A stretch of 64,000 nucleotides of DNA from Sphagnum compactum. Its lineage: Eukaryota. Position numbers and translations under genes: made by a program. Below are positions 4,070-48,492 of this stretch, one piece after another. Below the pieces are notes generated by a model that worked only from the letters and a program-made list of their open reading frames with translations, made no database searches and had not been told where the DNA came from. The stretch is from the NCBI GenBank assembly GCA_965153455.1, contig OZ234493.1:19768213-19832212 (forward strand), given 5' to 3'. Positions within the stretch are counted from its first letter, which is position 1, and each line of letters begins with the position of its first letter.

Positions 4070-6505
4070 AGGTGGGTTGCAGTTTCTGTGCATGTTTTCC
4101 AGTTGTACAAACTCATAGGTCATCAACAACAGTGTGTAATTTTTTATGTCTTTCTGGTGCCATCTATGGTTAATGTATTTCACAACAGTTTTTGGCACAA
4201 ACTGGGAAGTAAGTAAGTCCCTGCACTTTTGGAATTTTTCTCCAATCTTGAGCCAAGTACAGTTTAGTAGCTGTTTTTTTCCATTTTATTCAAGGTGGGA
4301 TGGAAGTTTCAGGTCCGCTCTCTTTTGACAACAGATCATCGATTGCAACCCATTCCTTTGAGTCTAAATGGATGCATCTGTGGCATTGTCTGGACATGCA
4401 TGCATCTACCATGTTGCATGGAACTAGTGAGTTGCTAACTAGCTGCAGGAGTCACCATTTTTGAATGTTTCTTCTGCCTATGATGATCATGATGATGCAC
4501 ATAAGACACTGAACGAAATGGCCTATGTAATTGCAGGTACCTTACAAATTTACCAGCAAGGAAGTCAAGATTTGGGATGGCTGGGACTCTAATGATAAAC
4601 TCTCACTAGTATGTTCCAAAGCCTCTACACATTATAATATTATGGCTGAGATCTTGTTTGTGATCTGTACCATAGAGAACAAGCTAACTTGGGTATTGTT
4701 CACAATTGAAAATTGTCTCCAATTACAACCGAGGGGGCACAGCCCAAGTCATTTTGACTTGGCTGAGAGACATGGTCGGGACATACATACATACATTAGT
4801 TCCCACAACAAATGCCATACATTTGTCTTTTCTGGTGTCCTGATACAATTCTTAAGAATGTAACAAATTTCTCTCCTCCATTTTCCCCTCCTATAAAGTT
4901 TTTGCTTTCTCATGGGTTTTAACAACTTTCTCTCCTCCATCCTCCTATAGATTTGATGCTTGCTCAACGTGTGTAACAAGATTTCCAAAGGGAAGAGCTA
5001 TTGTGAGTTTGTTGTTGAAAATCATATCCACCACCTTGTGATCCATTCCACAGTGCCTAAAGGTTAAGAATCAATTACAGCCTAGAACTTTCATCACACA
5101 TACACAATGCCATCTGCTTCGAAAGCAAAGTGTGCATTATGCAAGTGTGTCATTTCAATGTACATCTTGATGTTGCTAAACAATGTTGTATAAAAAGATT
5201 CAGTTTGAATTCAAGCTTAATGTTTGTCATTTTCTTGAGCTTCATTCTGAGGCATTGAATACGGAGGTCAGTTGTCTAGTCCACTCCAATTGTCTACTTC
5301 CAGAGAAGGCGGAAATGAGTATTCATGAATTAATTATACAAAATTCTTGATGTAGGAAAATTGAAAATCATAAATCATAAATAAGTATATCAAAGGTTAA
5401 ATTTCAGAAACTCGCTTTTTGAATTTTAAGAAAAAGAAATAATAATAATAATAATAATATTGAAAACTACAAGTTCATCCAAAAATGAAAGGGGGCAAAA
5501 CGAAAAAGAAAAAAGAAAAGTGAGAAACGAAAGTGATGAAAATGGCGCCAAACGGATGAAAGCGCGCGCCACCCAATTTCTCGTATTTTGCTGCGACTGC
5601 GCGCCTTCCCTTCCACTAAATTTGCACTCTGAAATCGGCGGCGTCTGGCAACGTTTCTCGCAGCTCCTACGACGAGTTCGCGTCCCCGGTTCGTCGTCTC
5701 TACACAAAGCAAGATGATGGCTTTCTTGCTTGCTTGCTTGCTTGCTTCTGGGATGTTGTGATTGAATTTTACACAAAGATTCAGTTTTTTTTTTCCCCGC
5801 CGCTATTTCTATTGTAGAATTTTTCTGGTAGCTGCATTTCTGCAAGCTTGCTGTTGCTGCATGGCCATGGCGTAGTAGTAGCTGTGGACGTCTTGCGTGA
5901 TTTGTTTGATTCAGAGGCGGACGGAAGGATGGACTGTTTTTTGCGATGATGATGGTCACGACGCGCGCGCGAGAGAGAGAGCAGAAGCTGAATCCGTCTC
6001 GAATGTGTAACAGTAATGGTGGCAGTGCTGGCAGCGGCTTTGGGATCGGTTTGCATGCTGTTGGCAAGGAGCAGCAAAAGCCTGCATGCATGTTTTCATA
6101 GCTGTTTGTGAAGCCAGAGTATTCGTTAGGACTGCAGCTGCTTCTTTAGGATCAATTCCAGGAGAGTTGGTTGTTGGGGTCACGCTTAATTCCATGCATC
6201 TGGGTTCGACTGAATTTCCTTCAGGATCAGAGGCTGGTAGAGTTCCGGGGCATTTGTCCAGACACGAGTGTCTATACTACTATGGTGTCAGGATGCGAGG
6301 ATTCTCCCGTGTTACAGTAGTAGATCAGTTGGCAAGCAGATCCAGATCAATTTTCTACTTCACAGGGAGCTGCATCTTCGAGTACAGCAATCTCTGCAGG
6401 TTGGCGCAAGAATAGATAGATGTAAGAGAGAATTGTTCTCCTCAGCCTGGAGTCTAGATCGGGAGATTCAGAGCTGCATAGTGGGGACCACCTGGGTAAG
6501 GAACA

Positions 6506-10990
<4,485 letters not shown>

Positions 10991-11817: not shown

Positions 11818-14800
11818 TTACCTAGTTGATTTGAGCAAAACACTCCTGTTGTCTAGGCAAGAAACTAAGTACAAAGCTACCGCTTTCTGAGTAGCCGAAT
11901 GCATCAATTCAGGCAGTAAGCTGCACGGTGTCAACTGTTTCCCTAGCTGTTGACCAAACTTGCAACGAATGTCATGGTGAGCTGGGCACACTAGCAACAG
12001 GTGGTCTTCATCCTCAACAGCTCCTAGGGAACACAGGCAACAAACCCTATCTCTCCTCGATACACTCTCAGGCTTTGCATGCCTGCCACACTCTACCTCC
12101 AAACGATGGTTTGAACATCTGAACCTTGACAAAGATTGCCTGAGCTGAACATTTGTGATCACTTGTAAATAACTCTGATGTGCATATGAGTACCCAGATT
12201 CTATTGTACAGCTCGTGTTCATTAGCTGGTATGTACGTAATCTGCTACTTCTGGCTCTGTCCTGTTCACCATAAGTGGATTCTAGATAAGAAGCCTGTGC
12301 ACTTGCTACAGCACACATGACATTAGTATAGAGAACCCCAACCCCTTGGTCGTCAAGCCACAACTGCACGTTCCGGAGCCAACACTGTTGGTTATCATTG
12401 AGCACACTGAGCATCTGGAGCTGGGTCTGGTAGGCACAGTACAACAGACAATCTGGTGTGGACTCCCGTAGTCTATCATAATACTTGAGAGTTTGTTGCC
12501 ACCAGAAATACTCCAATGGATACCTTCCAAACTCCCCCAACACAGCAAAAGTGCTTGTTGTTTTATTGACCCCTAATATTCCTCTCAGGAACATTCTATG
12601 TACTTGTTCTGCTTGTTGCAACCCTTTCGCCCCTGTACAACATGTCCACACCTCGCATGCATAGCTCAGTATTGGGCGTACCAGTGAGTCGAACAACTGA
12701 CACATTACTTCCGGATCTGTTATGCTCAGATCATTGCATCTGCAGCGTAATGCAAACAGTGCCTTCTTCCCAGCAGCAGTCAGTTTGTTTATGGCTACTG
12801 CCATGCCTCTTGTACTATGTAACTCTAAGCCCAGGTATCTGAATGATTGAACCCGCTCAATGGTTGTCCCTCTGTATGTGAATTCTGGCGCTGCACTGTG
12901 GCGTTTCTCAAACACCACCACCTTGGTCTTGCTCACATTGATGACCAATTGTCGTTCAACACAGAACTCAGACAGAGCATCTATTTGTTTCTGCAACCCT
13001 TGTGGGGTCTCTGACATCAATGCCAAATCATCTGCATACAGCAGTAATTTAACTACTATGTCTGCCACCTGTGGCGGGCTGTCGCCATCGAGTGCATTTA
13101 GATGCTTCTCAAGTCCATCAAGGTAGAGTCCAAAAAGCAGTGGGCTCAGTGGACAACCTTGTTTGACCCCAATGCCACATGAGAACCGCGCTAATAGCCC
13201 TTCTATTGGATGCATAATTCTGACGCTGTCTTGGCTGTACATGCTCTATAAACACTGCATGAAACGACCCACAATTCCCATCTCAGCCAGCACCTGCCAT
13301 AGCAGATCACGAGGCACTGTATCAAAAGCTTTGCGAAAGTCCACAAAACAACAATACGCCTTTTTGCGTTTGTGAGTGTTCTGTTCAATGAACGTTCACA
13401 AAATGTACAGGTTATCCGTGGTGCGGAAGTCTTTCCTAAAACCAGCCTGTCCCCTGGCACGTAGGCCCCTCTCTTCTGCCCAATTGCTCAACCGTGCCTC
13501 TAGAATCATGGCAAACACCTTAGCTAATACAGGAGCCACTGTGATTCCCCTGTAGTTCTCAAATTGCAAGGCATCACCACCCTTGTGCAATGCATGAATG
13601 ACTCCAGTAGACAGGCCTGCTGAATAACCTTGTTGCAACAACTTGTTGAACACAATCTGCAGTGGTACATGCAACATATCGCCAGCATCTAGCAGAAACT
13701 CTACTTTGATGCCATCTAAGCCAGCAGACTTGTTACGTTTGAGTCTCCTCACCACTTGCGCAATCTCATCTAAGGTTATGTCACAATTTAGTGTGCTGCA
13801 ATCATCACTTGCAAAAGGGTATGACAAGCTTGAGACCACTTGATCTGTAGAGCTACCCTGTCCCCCAGCTGTATTACTGGGGCATTATCCTTCCAGCAGC
13901 TTCTGGAAGCCAGCAACCAAGTCTGCTTTGCTGATAGCAACAGATCGCTCCTTGCTCTTGGAGTATTGCCTCCAAAAGCTGGCTGGATCTGTCTTTGTTA
14001 GTGCACACAACTATCGGCCTTGCAGCTTATTGTACGTGCGTTTCTTACGACGCAGTAGCTGTTTAAATTGCTTCTTCCGTTCGCGTGCTAGATGACTGTC
14101 AGGATGAAGCTTTACATATGCAGATACTTCCTTGTGCTTGCTGCAACATTCAGTATCAAACCATGGTTGATGACGATGTTGTGTCGTACTGGTGCGTGTC
14201 GCAGGGCAACCATGCACAGCCGAAGTGCGGTTACAAATGCAGTCATGCAACAACTGCACGGCCATGTCAACATTATCTGTGTCACTCATCTGTGTTGTGC
14301 ACTGGGCAATCTATTGCTGCAGGTGCTGATAATACTGTGTGCACTTGCTAGCATCATGTTTGAAACGACGAATGTCTGCACGTGATTCTAAAGTCGTTGA
14401 TGACACATGTTGCCAAGGTAACTGCGTTGAGTGAAAATGGCCTGTGGTCGGAATCACACCCTTTTCCACAGAATAGAGGGCATTTATGTACAACAAGTGA
14501 TGTGGCACAATCAAACAGAGCAAGTGATGCGACCATATAATCCACAAGGCTGGAGCCGCCATTGGCAAAGCAAGTGCACTCCCCTGATTCATCGCCTGTG
14601 ATCCTGCCATTGAGAATGAACAATCCCGAGGAGCGCCAAAGGTCTAAGAACTCATTGTGCCATCCTTTCAACCCCCCCTTGTCCGACTTATGTCGCTCAG
14701 GCAAAACCTCCGGGAAGTCAATCCCCAATGGCAACGTGTCAAGCATGTGATCTGCAAAGTAACGACAATCAACATAGTCGTCAGCTGCACTGGTCCTTGC

Positions 14801-15262
14801 ATTGAAATCACCAGTCAGTAAAATACTGCCCCCAAGATCCTGAATCATGCCGACCTCTGCAGCAATGTTATCAAACAAGCCTTCATCAACATATGGGGAC
14901 CCTTTGGATGGAGCATACACTACAGCCAAAAACAACGGTGCAGCCCCTGAGCGCTGGAACTGCAGCCACAACCTGGTGCCATCTGTGCTCTGTTTCCATA
15001 GGGATACACAGTCTGACCATGAGTCATTCACAAATACTACAACACCACCACTATGCTTCACTGCTGCTCTAACTAAGCTCATGTCAAATACAGGGCGTGG
15101 ACTGTGTAAACACTGAAAACCAGGCATATGCAGTGGTGTTTCATCAGGGAACAAGTGTGTTTCAGTCAGTGCAACAACATCTGAGTCATCAAACAGTCTC
15201 TGTATATGTGAACTGGTACTTAGTTTCGTGTTTGTCCCCCCATGGATGTTCCACAGGGAGAC
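11818..15262 (-). pseudogene. LINE ORF2 (APE endonuclease, reverse transcriptase, CCHC finger), frameshifted
   Basis: Fragments 14354-15262 (APE), 14011-14289, 13396-13839 and 11818-13242 (RT with YADD, CCHC) lie in shifting frames. Confidence 0.88.
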
Positions 15263-19869: not shown

Positions 19870-20587
19870 CTCTGACTCGTCAGACGCGCTTCGCGGCGTT
19901 CATTCTCCGGCAGATCAGGAGCGAACTCCATTATTGTTCTTGTCGTGAGATCTTCATGTGGGTGGTCTGTGTAATTTCACTGCAAAAACGATCATCATTT
20001 TCTCTCTCCTTTTTCAAAAAAAATTCTGTCGTTATGCGTTGTGTCTACAGAGCTGCAGCTCTGACTCAAGACTCCTTTTGCAGTTTTTCTTCTTTTTTTC
20101 CTGTTGCTCCTGGCGTGTTTGGTGTGTGCACTGGAGACAGACAGTGGTAGATACATACATACATACACACATACATTGGTCTCGTCAGAGTTGGTTTTAT
20201 TATTGTAGTATACTTCTAAAAGATTCTGCAACTGTTATTGTCTCACAAGCTTCACAAAGAAGAAGCTGCTTTTGTTTCTGTTACTGAAGAAGAAGAAGTT
20301 GTTCAAGGAGTTGTCGAGAGTTCAAGTCGGTATCGACGAGGCAGTGGAATTGTAGATCGGTAAGAGAATAGATACACTGCAGCAGTGGCGCTCCAGCTTT
20401 CAAGGGTCGTTTTTTGGATCGAAAATGGAGTTTTAGTTCTGCTGGGAAACTGCGCAGATCAACCACGCTTTCTATAAGTAGACCAGCTGCACACCGAGAT
20501 ACTTTTACTGCATTCTTGCGGATTTCGGAGCTCCATTAGTTGCAAGGGAGAAGAGGTTGTTGAGAAAGAGACTGAGCTCAGATCATC

Positions 20588-21616
20588 ATGCCAGTCTACG
20601 ATGTGGAGAGTCTTGATGGGTCATTCAAGGGAAGGAAGAATTCGCACGCGCAATATAAGTTCCAGCCATCGCCGCTCAACGTTCCGCAACCGCCAGCACC
20701 CGAAGAAGAGAAGCGGAGATGGATTCCGTTCCTCATACCCATCATCCTGATTGCCAATATCGTGGTATTCGTCCTTACAATGTACTACAACAACTGCCCC
20801 GCACACATCAGCACCAGTGAGCCAAAATGCGTCCTGCCATGGCTGCACAGATTCTCCTTCCAATCTTTCAGGGAGAATCCTATGCTGGGACCATCTGCCC
20901 TAACTCTCCAAAAGATGGGAGGACTAGAACGCTCTCTGGTTCTCACCCACCATCAAGCATGGCGTCTGGTGAGTTGCATCTGGTTGCATGCAGGAGTGTT
21001 CCATCTACTTGTCAACATGATTGCACTCCTCATCATCGGCATTCGTCTGGAGATGGATTTTGGAGCTCCGAGGATCGGGCTGATATACTTGCTGTCAGGG
21101 TTTGGGGGCAGTCTGTTGTCTGCTTTGTTCGTAGAGAATCAAATCTCCGTCGGCGCTTCCGGTGCGCTGTTTGGGCTGTTGGGTGCAACACTTTCCGAGC
21201 TTCTCACCAACTGGTCTCGTTATGAGAACAAGTGCGCGCCGTTGGTCACGCTCATCTTGCTTGTGTTGGTGAATCTCGCGTTTGGTGTGATGCCGCATGT
21301 CGACAATTTCGCACACATTGGTGGGTTTGTGGCAGGGTTTCTGTTAGGGTTTGTGGTTCTCATCCGTGTCCAGTATGGGTACATCAACAAAGCGGATCTG
21401 CCTTATGGAGTTGATACAGAGGTGCCCATCAAGCGGAAATACAAAGCTTACCAGATTGTTTGCTGGGTTGTCTCTCTCATTCTTCTGCTTGGTTTGTACA
21501 TAGCCGCTTGTGTGGTGCTCTTCACCGGGATTGATGCCAACAAGAAATGCTCTTGGTGCCATTACCTGAGCTGTGTTCCAACAAGCCAGTGGCAGTGCAA
21601 CAACTTACCATCATAG
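20588..21616 (+). CDS. RBL: Rhomboid-like intramembrane serine protease (plant RBL type), single coding exon
   Basis: 342-aa ORF with RFSFQSFRENPMLGPS, WRLVSCIWLHAG, catalytic GASG (Ser) and AHIGG (His), multiple TM helices and a C-terminal CSWCHYLSCVPT motif. Confidence 0.93.
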   Translation: MPVYDVESLDGSFKGRKNSHAQYKFQPSPLNVPQPPAPEEEKRRWIPFLIPIILIANIVVFVLTMYYNNCPAHISTSEPKCVLPWLHRFSFQSFRENPMLGPSALTLQKMGGLERSLVLTHHQAWRLVSCIWLHAGVFHLLVNMIALLIIGIRLEMDFGAPRIGLIYLLSGFGGSLLSALFVENQISVGASGALFGLLGATLSELLTNWSRYENKCAPLVTLILLVLVNLAFGVMPHVDNFAHIGGFVAGFLLGFVVLIRVQYGYINKADLPYGVDTEVPIKRKYKAYQIVCWVVSLILLLGLYIAACVVLFTGIDANKKCSWCHYLSCVPTSQWQCNNLPS

Positions 21617-45341: not shown

Positions 45342-48299
45342 TCACCAATAATCCTTGCAAGAACAAGCACCATCCTCAAAGTGATGAAACCGATTGGCAT
45401 CCCTGACTATGATTGTTCGCTCCACAATCTTGGCAATGAACTTTGTGGCTGTGTGACAGTCCCCACATACCCGCAGATTCTTAAAAATGCGCAGTGGAGT
45501 ATGAGAAGGTGTGCTGATGAGCCCAAATGCAATGGCCAATTTCTCACTATGGTGACACAACTGAGACACCTTTTCTTCTTCCTCCACATCATGCAGCACG
45601 AATTTCGTCTCTGGTACATATCCTTCCTCATGCATCCGTCCTGACAATCTCTTCAATTCTGCATGGATTTCACTAATCTGAGGATGGTCTTGATCATCTA
45701 CTACAAATGTATGCACCTTATTATTCAATTCGATCCAGGTGCAACCTGGCTGCTTTTTCACACCTCTTTCCTTTCTCAGCTGTTGAACTTTGTCCTTGAG
45801 ATCCCACCTGCCAGCAGCAGCGTAGATGTTTGATAGCAGCACATAGCCAGCAGCATTCTTAGGGTCCACTTCAAGAACTTGTTTTGCAACACGCTCTCCC
45901 ATCTCCATGTTACCATGAATTCTGCAGGCACCAAGCAAAGCCTTCCATGCTGCTGCATCTGGTTTACAGGGCATTGTCTTGATTATTTTCTCTGCCTCAT
46001 GCAGGTGGCCAGCTCGGCCAAGAAGATCAACCATGCAGGTGTAGTGTTCCAATTTTGCAGAAATCTTGTAAACTGCACTCATGGAACCATAACAGCGCAA
46101 TCCTTCCTGCACCAGGCCTGCATGGCTACAAGCTGAAAGAAGACAAAGAAAAGTGACATCATCTGGCTCTACACCCTCTTCACACATCCGTTCAAAATGT
46201 TGAAGGGTTTCCTCACCATGCCCATGCATGGCAAATCCTCTAAGCAAGGCATTCCAGGAGACCACATCATGTGATGACATCTTGTTGAACACCCTCCAAG
46301 ATTCTTCCATGCTCCCACATTTGGCATACATGTCAACAAGGCTACTCCTCACAAAGACATTTGACTCAAAGTCACTTTCTATAATTTGTTTATGAGCACG
46401 CCTGCCCTCTTCAAGTGCCAGTACACTTGCACAGGCATTCAGGACCCCAACAAAAGTGATAGGGTTTGGCAGAACACCTTCCTGTTGCATTTGTTGAAAC
46501 AGTTTCAGTGCTGCCTGCCCTTCCCCACATTTCACATTTCCCAATATCATGGCAGTCCATGAGACCACATCTCGTGAGGACATCTTGTTAAACACTTTCC
46601 AAGCCTCCTCCATGCTCCCACATTTGGCATACATATCCACCAGGCTACTCCCCACAAACACATCCAAGTCACAACCACTTTGAATGATCTGTTCATGAGC
46701 ATGCCTGCCCTCTTCAAGTGCCCCTACACTAGCACAAGCATTCAGCACACCCACAAAAGCAACAGAGTCTGGCTGCACACCTTTCTGCTGCATTTGTCTA
46801 AATAGTTCCAATGCCTCCCACCCTTGCCCACATTTCACATATCCCAATATCATAGCAGTCCAACAGACCACATTGTGTGATGGCATCTTGTTGAATGCTC
46901 TCTGAGCATCCTCCATGCTCCCACATTTGGCATACATGTTGATGAGGCTGCTCCCTACAAACAAATCAGTCTCACAACCGATTTGAATGACCTTCTCATG
47001 AGCATGCCTGCCCTCTGCGAGTGCTTGTAAGCTAGCACATGCATTAAGCACCTGAACAAAAGTGAACTTGTCAGGACTTATGCCTTCTCGTTGCAGTTGT
47101 TGGAAAAGCTGCAGTGTCTTCTCCGGTTCCCCAGCCTTGACATATTTTGCAAGCTTTTTATTCCATGCAAAAACGTTCAGCTGCAGTGTGCCTGGCACCA
47201 TTGCAGCCATCTCTGCCTCCACCCATGCAGGTGTCCAATGATCATCAATCCAGATGCCCACTTGCGTCTTCTTATGAGTAAAATCAGGATACCTTGCATT
47301 CATCTACCACCAGAATTACAAACTGAGTGCCTCATAGCATGTCCAGATCAGGTTCTGAAATTCACTAGAATGCTAACTGACTTCCTCCGAACAGTGAATG
47401 GTGGCAGACATTTACCTTCTCTGTCCTGTGATCCCACCATTGGGAAGGATCTGAAAAGAATTCCCGCCAAAGTTTCTCTCTCTGGCCTCTAGGATCCTTG
47501 GTATCTGGTAAAAACACAAGCTCCCATCTAATCATGGACTTGCTCAACAATAGGAAAGTTGTATTGAATCAATCTTGCAGTAAACACTTAGTTTGAGTCC
47601 AAAGTGAACATTTTATTTTGAAAGGATCAGAGAAGCACTTAGATTTTGCTGCAGCCTCTGGCCAGATATCACCTTGCTGCTTTCAAATAACATGCCAATC
47701 TTTTCAAGAACAAACCCTTACAAAATTCAGACAACCATAACTCTGCCACAATCTAAAATGAGGCACGACATCACATTCTGGAACAATGTACTCTTGGAAG
47801 ATTGCTTTGTTGTCCATAGTCTCCTAAGTTCTGCTGTGTTCCATCCATCAGCACTTCTGGTCGCAGATACATCTTGGGCAAATAGTGTGTGATCTTGTAC
47901 ATTCACTAGAGAAGAGATGAAGATTTTAGCGCTAAGAACGAGACAAAAGACAGTTTATTCAACCAAAACATCGTTCATACCTTTCCACGGAGCAGATGCA
48001 TATGAGAGCATTGGTGGTCTAAAGAAATATGTAAAAGAAGTAAGAGAAGGCAGTAGAAGAGAGGGGAAAAACTTACGATAGCCCTGATCTCTGAGTGCCG
48101 CATTTGTTTCAATCATCTGCCCCCTGGGAAGTAGAGCAGTTGATTGCAGGAGCAGAAATTGTTGCACTTGACGCGAAGGTGAAGCACAGACACATAGCAG
48201 GCCCTTGATCCGCGTCTCCCCTGGTCCCCATGTGGGAAAGGGCTGCTGCTCCCGAAAGAGCAATTGCAGTTCCCGCATTGACGATAATGCTATGTCCAT
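45342..48299 (-). CDS. PLS-class PPR protein with E1/E2 and DYW cytidine deaminase (organellar C-to-U editing factor), carrying an N-terminal OSB-type PDF motif
   Basis: Main exon 47303-45342: 12 PPR motifs ((P-L-S)x3, P2-L2-S2), E1/E2, PG box (PGCTWIE), HSEKL, CGDCH and terminal DYW. Exon 47504-47416 joins it in phase 0 (AAG|GTAAAT..TAG|ATG). Likely further exons 48299-48077 and 47905-~47790; these boundaries are uncertain. Confidence 0.9.
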
Positions 48300-48492
48300 C
48301 GCAACAATAACAGCAACTACAAAACCAACATCATCTTGCTTTCTCTTTTTTCACCGTCTAATTGCACAAAACCCTAAACCCTAAACTAGGAGAGGAGAAG
48401 ATGTGAAAGCAGGAAGCACAGACACGCCTTAAAGAACCGTGCGTTTTTGCTTCGTGTATTTTCAGGCCGGTTATACGCGAGAAGATCGCTCA

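Follow-up and report, generated by a model that had tools for sequence, protein, structure and literature searches.

Within the window, by which we mean the whole stretch of 64,000 nucleotides of DNA analysed here, lies a nuclear gene of a Sphagnum-type moss that is expressed, has three exons and encodes a 757-aa protein combining a presequence predicted to be disordered, one PDF motif, a short linker of fixed length, an array of 12 PLS-type PPR motifs with E1, E2 and E+, and an intact cytidine deaminase domain of the DYW:PG type. That this PDF-PPR-DYW gene is real, is expressed and has a family of relatives is next to certain; that, in addition, its PDF works as an accessory binder of nucleic acid gives a fuller reading, which we favour with slightly better than even confidence. 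The combination of PDF, PPR array and DYW domain was noticed in a preliminary description, and as an observation it is upheld by the gene model, the annotation, the RNA joints and the homology of the PDF; the interpretation that accompanied it is partly supported overall.

The gene lies on the minus strand in exons 48299-48077, 47504-47416 and 47303-45342, which join into a coding sequence of 2274 nt (757 codons plus a stop codon, with no internal stops). Its features are as follows.

48077..48299, minus strand: exon 1, with the ATG at 48299, 74 codons and 1 base
47505..48076, minus strand: intron 1, 572 nt, GT..AG, phase 1
47416..47504, minus strand: exon 2, 89 nt, with the first half of the PDF motif at 47416-47478
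47304..47415, minus strand: intron 2, 112 nt, GT..AG, phase 0, interrupting the PDF motif
47208..47303, minus strand: start of exon 3 and second half of the PDF motif, matching PDF profile positions 27-58 (P0001/P0002)
45957..47174, minus strand: PLS-type PPR array of 12 motifs (Pfam PPR_2 and PPR; motif parse)
45753..45956, minus strand: E1 and E2 motifs (Pfam E_motif, 2.2e-21; motif parse)
45342..45752, minus strand: PG box, E+, DYW cytidine deaminase domain and stop codon (Pfam and sequence)

The preliminary description had set the gene at 45342-47504, a range that holds for exons 2 and 3 and leaves out exon 1 (48299-48077) and intron 1. The donor of exon 1 reads TATC followed by GTAAGT, and tblastn aligns this exon at 87% identity with residues 1-79 of P0009, the annotated 757-aa protein of S. 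fallax (KAH8955356.1). Read on the minus strand, exon 47504-47416 finishes in ...CACAGGACAGAGAAG, and GTAAAT comes next; intron 47415-47304 ends in ...GGTAG; and exon 3 opens with ATGAATGCAAGG at 47303. The splice between 47416 and 47303 that had been proposed is phase 0 and gives the protein reading described earlier, and the same junction is present in P0009 and in the annotated 757-aa protein P0024 of S. magellanicum (KAH9555682.1). In the orthologous loci L067-L070, exon 2 corresponds to PDF profile positions 3-30. A 631-aa isoform in the annotation (P0008) takes a different acceptor and has no in-frame PDF, so the motif may be absent from some products. Public 653-aa models begin at the methionine after intron 2 and so lack the first half of the PDF, which bears out the earlier remark that the motif is easily overlooked when ORFs are called without splicing. 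No further copy of the PDF was found in the 64,000-nt window, where tblastn matches outside the gene had E values of 0.19 or higher.

RNA evidence comes from four runs, X22 (raw polyA RNA), X2, X9 and X1. The joint between 47303 and 47416 occurs in all four, as one read in X22 and one contig each in X2, X9 and X1, and the joint between 47504 and 48077, which skips 572 nt, occurs in one of the four (X1); the RNA backing of the junctions is thin, at one read or contig per run. Read depth in X22 is 4-24 in bins of exons 2 and 3 and 0-0.5 in bins wholly within the two introns (0-0.43 across intron 1). Over exon 1 it is low, at about 3.8 in bin 48086-48196 and below 0.4 in bin 48197-48307, and it is 0 in bin 47975-48085, which contains the last 9 bases of that exon. 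Some contigs retain intron 2 (X2 record 14 and X9 record 23).

Sequence comparison identifies the 58-aa segment ahead of the first PPR repeat as a true PDF motif of the OSB type, as had been proposed. A phmmer search with a 64-aa segment against 1.84 billion proteins returned 758 matches at E<=1e-3, 213 of them at E<=1e-10; among the best 150 of the 758, 49 possess an SSB/OB domain (OSB type) and 19 possess PPR motifs. Profile A1 matches angiosperm proteins named OSB1, OSB2 and OSB3, and BLASTP aligns the segment with the four PDF repeats of Eutrema OSB1 (E values between 1e-13 and 8e-10; identity 25-45%, and 43-45% in three of the four) and with an SSB-domain protein of Adiantum (5e-15). The segment bears the signature of the OSB family over about 50 aa (W..FF..P..WWD.R..K.....PDF.HK.....LW.....P.WV), and ten columns (W, P, W, D, R, P, F, W, P, W) are invariant over 24 PDFs of the OSB and PPR types; at two well-conserved positions the window PDF departs from the consensus, with PDFTHK for PDFKHK and GIW for ALW. 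The OSB-type SSB domain was not found: a scan covering the exon 2 frame and the PDF segment yielded neither PF00436 nor any other Pfam match, whereas OSB-type relatives do show PF00436. Pfam assigned the PDF segment to no family (the sole match, Arc_MA at E=0.061, is below its cut-off), and residues 70-140 of P0009 gave no usable match in the ESM Atlas. Because Pfam has no PDF model and unspliced gene calls truncate the motif, its presence in PPR proteins is easily missed.

The remainder of the protein has the composition of a PLS-class PPR-DYW protein: tandem P-L-S triplets, E1/E2 and E+ motifs, and a DYW deaminase. The 653-aa ORF at 45342-47303 matches Pfam PPR_2 (3.1e-73), PPR (4.7e-59), Eplus_motif (3.3e-05; its 24.0 bits equal the Pfam cut-off of 24) and DYW_deaminase (7.5e-45, spanning all 93 profile positions). 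The array parses as three P1-L1-S1 triplets followed by P2-L2-S2, with motif lengths of 35/35/31 and 35/36/32, and for its P and S motifs the PPR code predicts 5'-U?AG?GA?GU?G-NNN-C. The deaminase region contains QPGCTW, HSEK, CGDCH and a terminal CSCKDYW, which comprise the PG box, HxE and CxxCH, so the catalytic motifs described as intact are indeed present. In AF2 models the helical PPR repeats exceed a pLDDT of 85, and residues 1-77 fall below 50; the product of exon 1, the least conserved region of the protein, is a presequence that is probably disordered and presumably targets an organelle, and the modelled disorder of the 77-residue N-terminus is compatible with a transit peptide. AF2 folds the PDF as a compact helix-hairpin-helix mini-domain (pLDDT 92), a fold retained in the full-length model. 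Comparison of the PDF model with the PDB by Foldseek gave a best E value of 2.2 (WW domains, probability 0.06), and the highest Z that VIA-align reached among 48,161 chains was 3.2; neither result assigns a solved fold, and neither implies that the fold is novel.

The PDF is conserved about as well as the deaminase domain. Over 30 proteins from mosses, a liverwort and a lycophyte, the frequency of the majority residue is 0.81 in the PDF, 0.84 in E+/DYW, 0.76 in the PPR array and 0.48 in the presequence; the linker between the PDF and the first PPR is conserved at 0.80, and the PDF accounts for 18 of the alignment's 25 invariant columns. Between the window gene and its orthologues in S. fallax and S. 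magellanicum, the PDF region differs at 0 and 1 positions and exon 1 at 6 and 7, respectively.

Judged by sequence, the window gene is a member of a large, conserved PDF-PPR subfamily of non-seed land plants and not a one-off chimera; on this point the earlier interpretation is not supported as it was stated. A PDF directly precedes a PLS-type PPR array at no fewer than 12 loci of S. fallax and 10 of S. magellanicum, in three proteins of the leafy liverwort Calypogeia fissa, in at least 24 locus tags of the lycophyte Diphasiastrum and in two ferns. A search with residues 78-180 of P0009, which requires shared 5-mers, listed 62 matches, 61 of which possess the PDF, always 5-7 residues before the start of the PPR alignment. 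No P. patens protein is among the 62 listed PDF-PPR matches, from which, in a search by shared 5-mers, absence does not follow. Nor is there a seed-plant member among the matches listed. The subfamily is apparently undescribed so far; no description of the architecture was found in the literature searched.

Metagenome loci give a view of how the motif is encoded: 54 of 80 hold the full PDF and PPR motifs within one uninterrupted ORF, 14 of 80 (four groups by ORF length) split the PDF near the point of intron 2, and nine of 80, which could be pseudogenes, interrupt it at profile position 46-47. An intron splitting the motif throughout the family, as truncated models starting at position 26-29 had suggested, is ruled out by these counts of 14 split and 54 intronless motifs among the 80. 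Some lycophyte and fern members hold two or three copies of the PDF. In a FastTree phylogeny, the six motifs of the three-PDF fern proteins P0040 and P0253 fall outside the clade that contains 75 of the 81 PPR-type motifs; the case for an independent origin of these two proteins is weakened, as a single clade is compatible with the AU test (p=0.44).

We propose that the PDF-PPR-DYW protein would be imported into mitochondria or plastids and would perform site-specific C-to-U RNA editing as other PLS-DYW factors do, with the PDF, to judge by its position and homology, as an accessory element that would bind single-stranded nucleic acid regardless of sequence. A PPR array and the RNA that it binds run in parallel, the N-terminal repeats holding the 5' nucleotides; a PDF located 5-7 residues ahead of the first repeat would therefore touch the transcript immediately 5' of the PPR footprint, about 16 or more nt upstream of the edited C, where it would raise affinity or hold the stretch of RNA single-stranded.

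The main rival, originating in the preliminary description, is a tether to the nucleoid, in which the PDF binds organellar single-stranded DNA (transcription bubbles, R-loops, or intermediates of replication and recombination), which would gather the editing factor at nucleoids and make editing co-transcriptional. We regard it as unlikely, at about one part in the credence to every three against it. Recombinant AtOSB1 and AtOSB2 are reported in a review to favour ssDNA over dsDNA or RNA (PMC4166229), a preference that favours tethering to DNA over binding of RNA. According to reviews, OSBs bind ssDNA through the PDF, and OSB1 and OSB2 prefer ssDNA to RNA; furthermore, residues invariant in OSB-type PDFs are retained in PPR-type PDFs, and the two or three copies in some lycophyte and fern members resemble multi-PDF OSBs. 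Against this, a mere tether would allow a linker of variable length, whereas the linker here is fixed at 5-7 residues and conserved; such constant spacing is somewhat more in keeping with an integrated nucleic-acid-binding unit than with a flexible tether, and the literature searched yielded no report of localisation or DNA binding for any PDF-PPR protein. A broader version, in which the PDF-PPR class is ancient and overlooked, its ssDNA-binding motif couples editing to the nucleoid or transcription bubble, and deamination of ssDNA is possible in some members, seems to us improbable. Under it, the class may also have disappeared from seed plants, which employ separate helper proteins such as MORF/RIP.

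Still more doubtful is a purely structural or interaction role, in which the PDF would cap the first PPR helices, or dock or oligomerise with proteins of the editosome or nucleoid, without binding nucleic acid. It would account for the tight and invariable adjacency of the PDF to the first PPR, it accords with the compact mini-domain that AF2 models at high confidence, and AtOSB2 is reported in a review to form a tetramer (PMC6963530); yet most PPR proteins do without such a cap, and the PDF positions common to both types are mostly aromatic or basic (W, F, R and K), which we consider typical of nucleic-acid contacts. Redirection of the DYW deaminase by the PDF to organellar ssDNA, converting C to U in DNA, is highly improbable, since the one point for it is that an ssDNA-binding motif and an intact cytidine deaminase occur in one protein, against a PLS array, E1, E2, E+ and DYW that are canonical for RNA editing factors and dozens of paralogues with diverged PPR arrays in the pattern of site-specific RNA editors. 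Equally remote, and largely refuted by the present evidence, is an accident of annotation or assembly or a decaying, functionless remnant: the thin junction coverage, the many public gene models that lack the PDF exon and the nine possible pseudogenes in its favour are set against the 54 loci with PDF and PPR in a single ORF, a PDF conserved like the DYW domain across 30 proteins, 0-1 PDF changes among three Sphagnum orthologues, and spliced joints in every RNA run.

PPR-DYW proteins are the RNA editors of plant organelles, and programmable RNA base editors are built on them; the modules known in these proteins are the PPR array, E1, E2, E+ and DYW. To these the PDF adds a further module, strongly conserved at a fixed distance ahead of the array in dozens of paralogues from four lineages of non-seed plants, and homologous to the ssDNA-binding element of the OSB proteins of genome stability. 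The questions that it raises are whether a non-specific single-strand binder boosts PPR affinity or editing efficiency, which, if true, would be useful for designer editors; whether editing is coupled to the nucleoid in early-diverging plants; and by what route the PDF was exchanged between OSB and PPR genes.

Among known systems, the OSB proteins share with the PDF-PPR-DYW protein a PDF of about 50 aa (40-47% identity, end to end, to the SSB-domain rows of alignment A1) and presumably an organellar location. Reviews (PMC6963530, PMC4166229 and PMC6451138) describe OSB proteins with a central OB/SSB-like domain and copies of the PDF C-terminal to it, whereas in the PDF-PPR-DYW protein no SSB domain was found and a single PDF is N-terminal to a PPR array; OSBs act on DNA recombination, and the PDF-PPR-DYW protein instead bears an RNA-editing deaminase. 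Moss PLS-E-DYW editing factors such as PPR56 and PPR65 of Physcomitrium patens resemble it in their PLS triplets, E1, E2, E+ and a DYW domain with HxE and CxxCH (PMC6397227 and PMC10482289), and all are presumably single-protein C-to-U editors; the published descriptions that were searched do not mention a PDF motif. The text of PMC13386178, on RRM-PPR fusions, contains zero occurrences of PDF, OSB or single-strand. In general plan, these fusions and maize PPR4, with its N-terminal RRM and PPR motifs (PMC9459714), likewise place an accessory nucleic-acid-binding module N-terminal to the PPR array; in them the module is an RRM, whereas in the PDF-PPR-DYW protein it is the PDF.

The PDF-PPR-DYW gene lies on the minus strand at 48299-45342 and has three exons. 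Its range had initially been placed at 45342-47504, which is right for exons 2 and 3 but omits exon 1: tblastn with an annotated Sphagnum protein as query locates orthologue residues 1-79 at 48299-48063, and joining 48299-48077, 47504-47416 and 47303-45342 gives an open coding sequence of 2274 nt (757 codons plus stop) with no internal stop. Intron 1 is bounded by donor TATC/GTAAGT and acceptor TTTACCAG/AT. The other features of the 64-kb window listed here have no evident tie to the PPR gene.

Features of the PDF-PPR-DYW gene and its neighbourhood (window positions)
48299-48077, minus strand: exon 1, from tblastn with the annotated orthologue
47504-47416, minus strand: exon 2, ending in AAG followed by GTAAAT in the sequence
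Between exons 2 and 3, minus strand: 112-nt intron ending in TAG, from the window sequence
47303-45342, minus strand: exon 3, with an ATG start at 47303
45342-47303, minus strand: ORF for a PLS-class PPR protein of 653 aa, from the window sequence
11818-15262, minus strand: LINE-like element (reverse transcriptase and endonuclease/exonuclease/phosphatase ORFs)
6500-8647, plus strand: protein-kinase exon
20576-21616, plus strand: rhomboid-domain ORF

By exact-sequence look-up, close annotated relatives are the Sphagnum genes BDL97_08G133600 (S. fallax) and CY35_08G128100 (S. magellanicum), and their 757-aa isoforms (P0009, KAH8955356.1, and P0024, KAH9555682.1, respectively) contain both proposed junctions identically. 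The window product differs from P0009 at 25 of 757 positions and from P0024 at 21: 6 and 7 in the exon 1 presequence, 0 and 1 in the 64-residue PDF region, and 19 and 13 in the remainder. The annotated 631-aa S. fallax isoform P0008 uses another acceptor inside exon 3 (window 47213-47303), which puts exon 2 out of frame and costs the product its in-frame PDF; alternative splicing might therefore yield an editing factor both with and without the motif.

The splice from exon 47504-47416 to 47303 proposed in the preliminary description thus agrees with the annotated isoforms and also with RNA: the joint 47303 to 47416 (112 nt, GT..AG, minus strand) is present in all four RNA runs examined, as a single read in X22 (raw polyA RNA-seq) and a single contig in each of X2, X9 and X1, and the joint 47504 to 48077 in one of the four (X1). 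RNA backing for the junctions is thin, and intron 2 is retained in some contigs (X2 record 14, X9 record 23). Depth in X22 is 0-0.5 in wholly intronic bins, 4-24 in exon 2 and exon 3 bins, and thin over exon 1 (approximately 3.8, below 0.4, and 0 in the bin with its last 9 bases); first mates are nearly all on the plus strand, the pattern that a stranded library would give for minus-strand RNA. Of 524 X22 reads, 335 mapped at only 90-95% likeness and therefore derive from paralogues. The exon 2 bin (47420-47530) has 2-4 times the X22 depth of adjacent exon 3 bins, and many loose read ends with differing continuations begin at 47479, which indicates that this conserved stretch, where the motif is encoded, also attracts reads from transcripts of PDF-PPR paralogues.

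The 653-aa ORF matches Pfam PPR_2 (3.1e-73), PPR (4.7e-59), E_motif (2.2e-21), Eplus_motif (3.3e-05; 24.0 bits, at the Pfam cut-off) and DYW_deaminase (7.5e-45, all 93 profile positions covered). It parses into 12 PPR motifs, namely three P1-L1-S1 triplets and a final P2-L2-S2; after them come E1, E2, the PG box QPGCTW, HSEK, CGDCH and a terminal DYW, so that the catalytic HSEK and CxxC motifs are indeed intact, as originally described. The protein has every feature of a PLS-E-DYW editing factor that can be read from sequence. Its P1-L1-S1 triplets closely resemble one another, as if the unit had recently been duplicated within the gene or had undergone concerted evolution.

Pfam has no model for the PDF motif; its identity rests on other searches. 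A phmmer search with the 64-residue P0009 segment against 1.84 billion representative proteins yields 758 matches at E<=1e-3; 213 of them reach E<=1e-10, and 23 reach E<=1e-30. Local sorting of the best 150 of the 758 gives 49 with an SSB/OB domain (OSB type, 1 to 13 motif copies), 19 with PPR repeats and 82 with neither, many of them fragments; Pfam bears out these classes, with PF00436 in OSB-type matches and PPR, E and DYW in PPR-type matches. A profile of 24 motifs retrieves 1048 proteins at E<=1e-3, and many of these bear the name OSB1, OSB2 or OSB3 in NCBI or UniRef. In BLASTP, the P0009 segment aligns to all four repeats of Eutrema 'protein OSB1, mitochondrial' (E 1e-13 to 8e-10; identity 25-45%, with three of the repeats at 43-45%) and to both repeats of an Adiantum SSB-domain protein (5e-15 and 8e-15). 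Ten columns of the motif alignment are invariant across OSB-type and PPR-type motifs (W12, P19, W22, D24, R26, P35, F37, W47, P54, W56), and the window copy keeps all ten, departing from consensus in PDFTHK (usually PDFKHK) and GIW (usually ALW). The N-terminal segment is accordingly an OSB-type PDF motif, as first proposed. Passages in PMC6963530, PMC4166229 and PMC6451138 describe this motif of approximately 50 aa as the ssDNA-binding element of OSBs.

Some of the matched protein models are unusual. P0028 (Kingdonia uniflora, 1160 aa) has 13 PDF repeats, matched as 13 stretches, far above the maximum of five in the OSB survey PMC13393729. In P0071 (Coptis chinensis, 1526 aa) and P0046 (Striga hermonthica, 1063 aa) the PDF lies in a kinesin-motor model and in 'Interactor of constitutive active ROPs 2', the latter also with a weak SSB match; an OSB gene may have been merged with its neighbour in these gene models, rather than truly fused.

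The gene, first described as a chimeric editor, is not an isolated case and belongs to a family found in mosses, a liverwort, a lycophyte and ferns. With P0009 residues 78-180 (PDF and first PPR motifs) as query, 62 proteins at E<=1e-8 are among the matches listed; 61 contain the PDF, and in all 61 the PPR alignment begins 5-7 residues past its end. Six of the 61 are gene models starting inside the motif (profile position 26-29), as do public 653-aa models of the window gene. The matches listed include at least 12 locus tags in S. fallax, at least 10 in S. magellanicum, several each in S. jensenii, S. tenellum, S. troendelagicum, S. balticum and S. compactum, three proteins in the leafy liverwort Calypogeia fissa, at least 24 locus tags with 1-3 PDF copies in the lycophyte Diphasiastrum complanatum, one protein (KAI5061374.1) in the fern Adiantum capillus-veneris and one EukProt transcript in the fern Pteridium aquilinum. 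No seed-plant, hornwort, Physcomitrium or Selaginella PDF-PPR protein is among the matches listed (150, 120 and 62 rows; one search with shared 5-mers).

A pattern scan of JGI metagenome contigs finds 553 stretches encoding a relative, of which 80 loci were retained, many being the same gene from different samples and hence not a gene count. In 54 of the 80, the full PDF and PPR repeats share one uninterrupted ORF, and the architecture there is therefore independent of splice prediction. In 14, falling into four groups by ORF length, the motif is split at about the same point as in the window gene, and four of these (L067-L070) match the query at 97-100% identity in the second motif half; three encode the PDF without PPR in the same ORF. 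In the other nine (L001, L011, L034, L049, L050, L052, L062, L065, L066) the PDF reading frame ends at profile position 46-47 or begins at position 32, with the tblastn match running through the break; pseudogenisation, a frameshift or an intron at a second site could account for this.

A FastTree phylogeny built from 284 non-redundant PDF motifs includes 81 of PPR type. Of these, 75 group in a single pure clade with support 81, and the six motifs of the fern-type proteins P0040 and P0253, with three PDF copies each, sit among OSB-type motifs. A single clade of all PPR-type motifs is not rejected by the AU test on a 90-row IQ-TREE analysis (p=0.44), in which likelihood even rises with the main PPR-type group held together. 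These phylogenies are compatible with one ancient fusion, and ferns may possibly have had a second. Chlorophyte records, too, contain proteins with several PDF copies: P0037 from Sanguina aurantia, P0264 from Gonium pectorale and P0284, which also carries PF00436, from Ulva mutabilis. The motif is therefore older than land plants, and these records are relevant to the view in PMC13393729 that OSB genes originated once the Chlamydomonas lineage had split off.

The PDF is strongly conserved: it holds 18 of 25 invariant columns in an alignment of 30 PDF-PPR proteins from Sphagnum, Calypogeia and Diphasiastrum.

Conservation by region: mean majority-residue frequency; share of columns at or above 0.9
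Presequence: 0.48; 3%
PDF: 0.81; 55%
Linker: 0.80; 40%
PPR array: 0.76; 31%
E1/E2: 0.76; 28%
E+/DYW: 0.84; 61%

AlphaFold2 on the motif alignment (mean pLDDT 92, pTM 0.76) predicts a confident mini-domain of helix, two short strands and helix. In the full-length model (mean pLDDT 80.7), PDF residues 79-138 reach pLDDT 70-81 with the same secondary structure, PPR repeats mostly exceed 85, and residues 1-77 fall below 50, compatible with a cleavable targeting sequence. No credible structural relative of the PDF model appears in Foldseek against the PDB (best E 2.2) or VIA-align against 48,161 chains (best Z 3.2).

The protein is thus a canonical DYW:PG-type editing factor with a disordered presequence and a conserved PDF at fixed distance ahead of the first PPR. 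PLS-DYW proteins are imported into organelles and edit specific sites in RNA from C to U, and family membership suggests that this protein would do likewise. By the PPR code, read from the fifth and last residues of each motif (ND=U>C, TD/SD=G, TN/SN=A), the array predicts the candidate target 5'-U?AG?GA?GU?G, three nucleotides, edited C. PPR arrays bind RNA in parallel orientation; therefore, the PDF would sit at the 5' edge of the footprint, where it could add affinity or hold upstream RNA single-stranded. On balance, we favour a PDF that serves as an accessory single-stranded nucleic-acid binder without sequence specificity. The nucleoid or ssDNA tether of the preliminary description is the chief alternative, at perhaps half that plausibility: a review (PMC4166229) reports that AtOSB1 and AtOSB2 prefer ssDNA over dsDNA or RNA, which speaks for a tether, but the short PDF-PPR linker is invariant and conserved, which speaks against it. 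A purely structural or protein-docking role is improbable, and DNA editing, or an artefact or relic, is very improbable.

These proteins are already public, annotated as 'hypothetical protein' or 'pentatricopeptide repeat protein'. Openly searchable literature on the PDF motif or OSBs with PPR, DYW or PLS-class proteins yielded no PDF-PPR protein, and an earlier mention elsewhere is possible; none was found pairing 'organellar single-stranded DNA' with DYW, and that on PDF motif or domain, OSB and plants yielded nothing about PPR. In their main texts, the 2026 OSB-family survey (PMC13393729) has no occurrence of PPR or pentatricopeptide, and the 2026 kingdom-wide survey of editing-factor domain fusions (PMC13386178) none of PDF, OSB or single-strand. 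Unlike OSBs, the window protein has no OB/SSB domain (Pfam and predicted disorder) and is for that reason not an OSB; the PDF module is their only common ground. The closest analogy is maize PPR4 (RRM-PPR), in which an accessory N-terminal nucleic-acid-binding domain is likewise joined to a PPR array.
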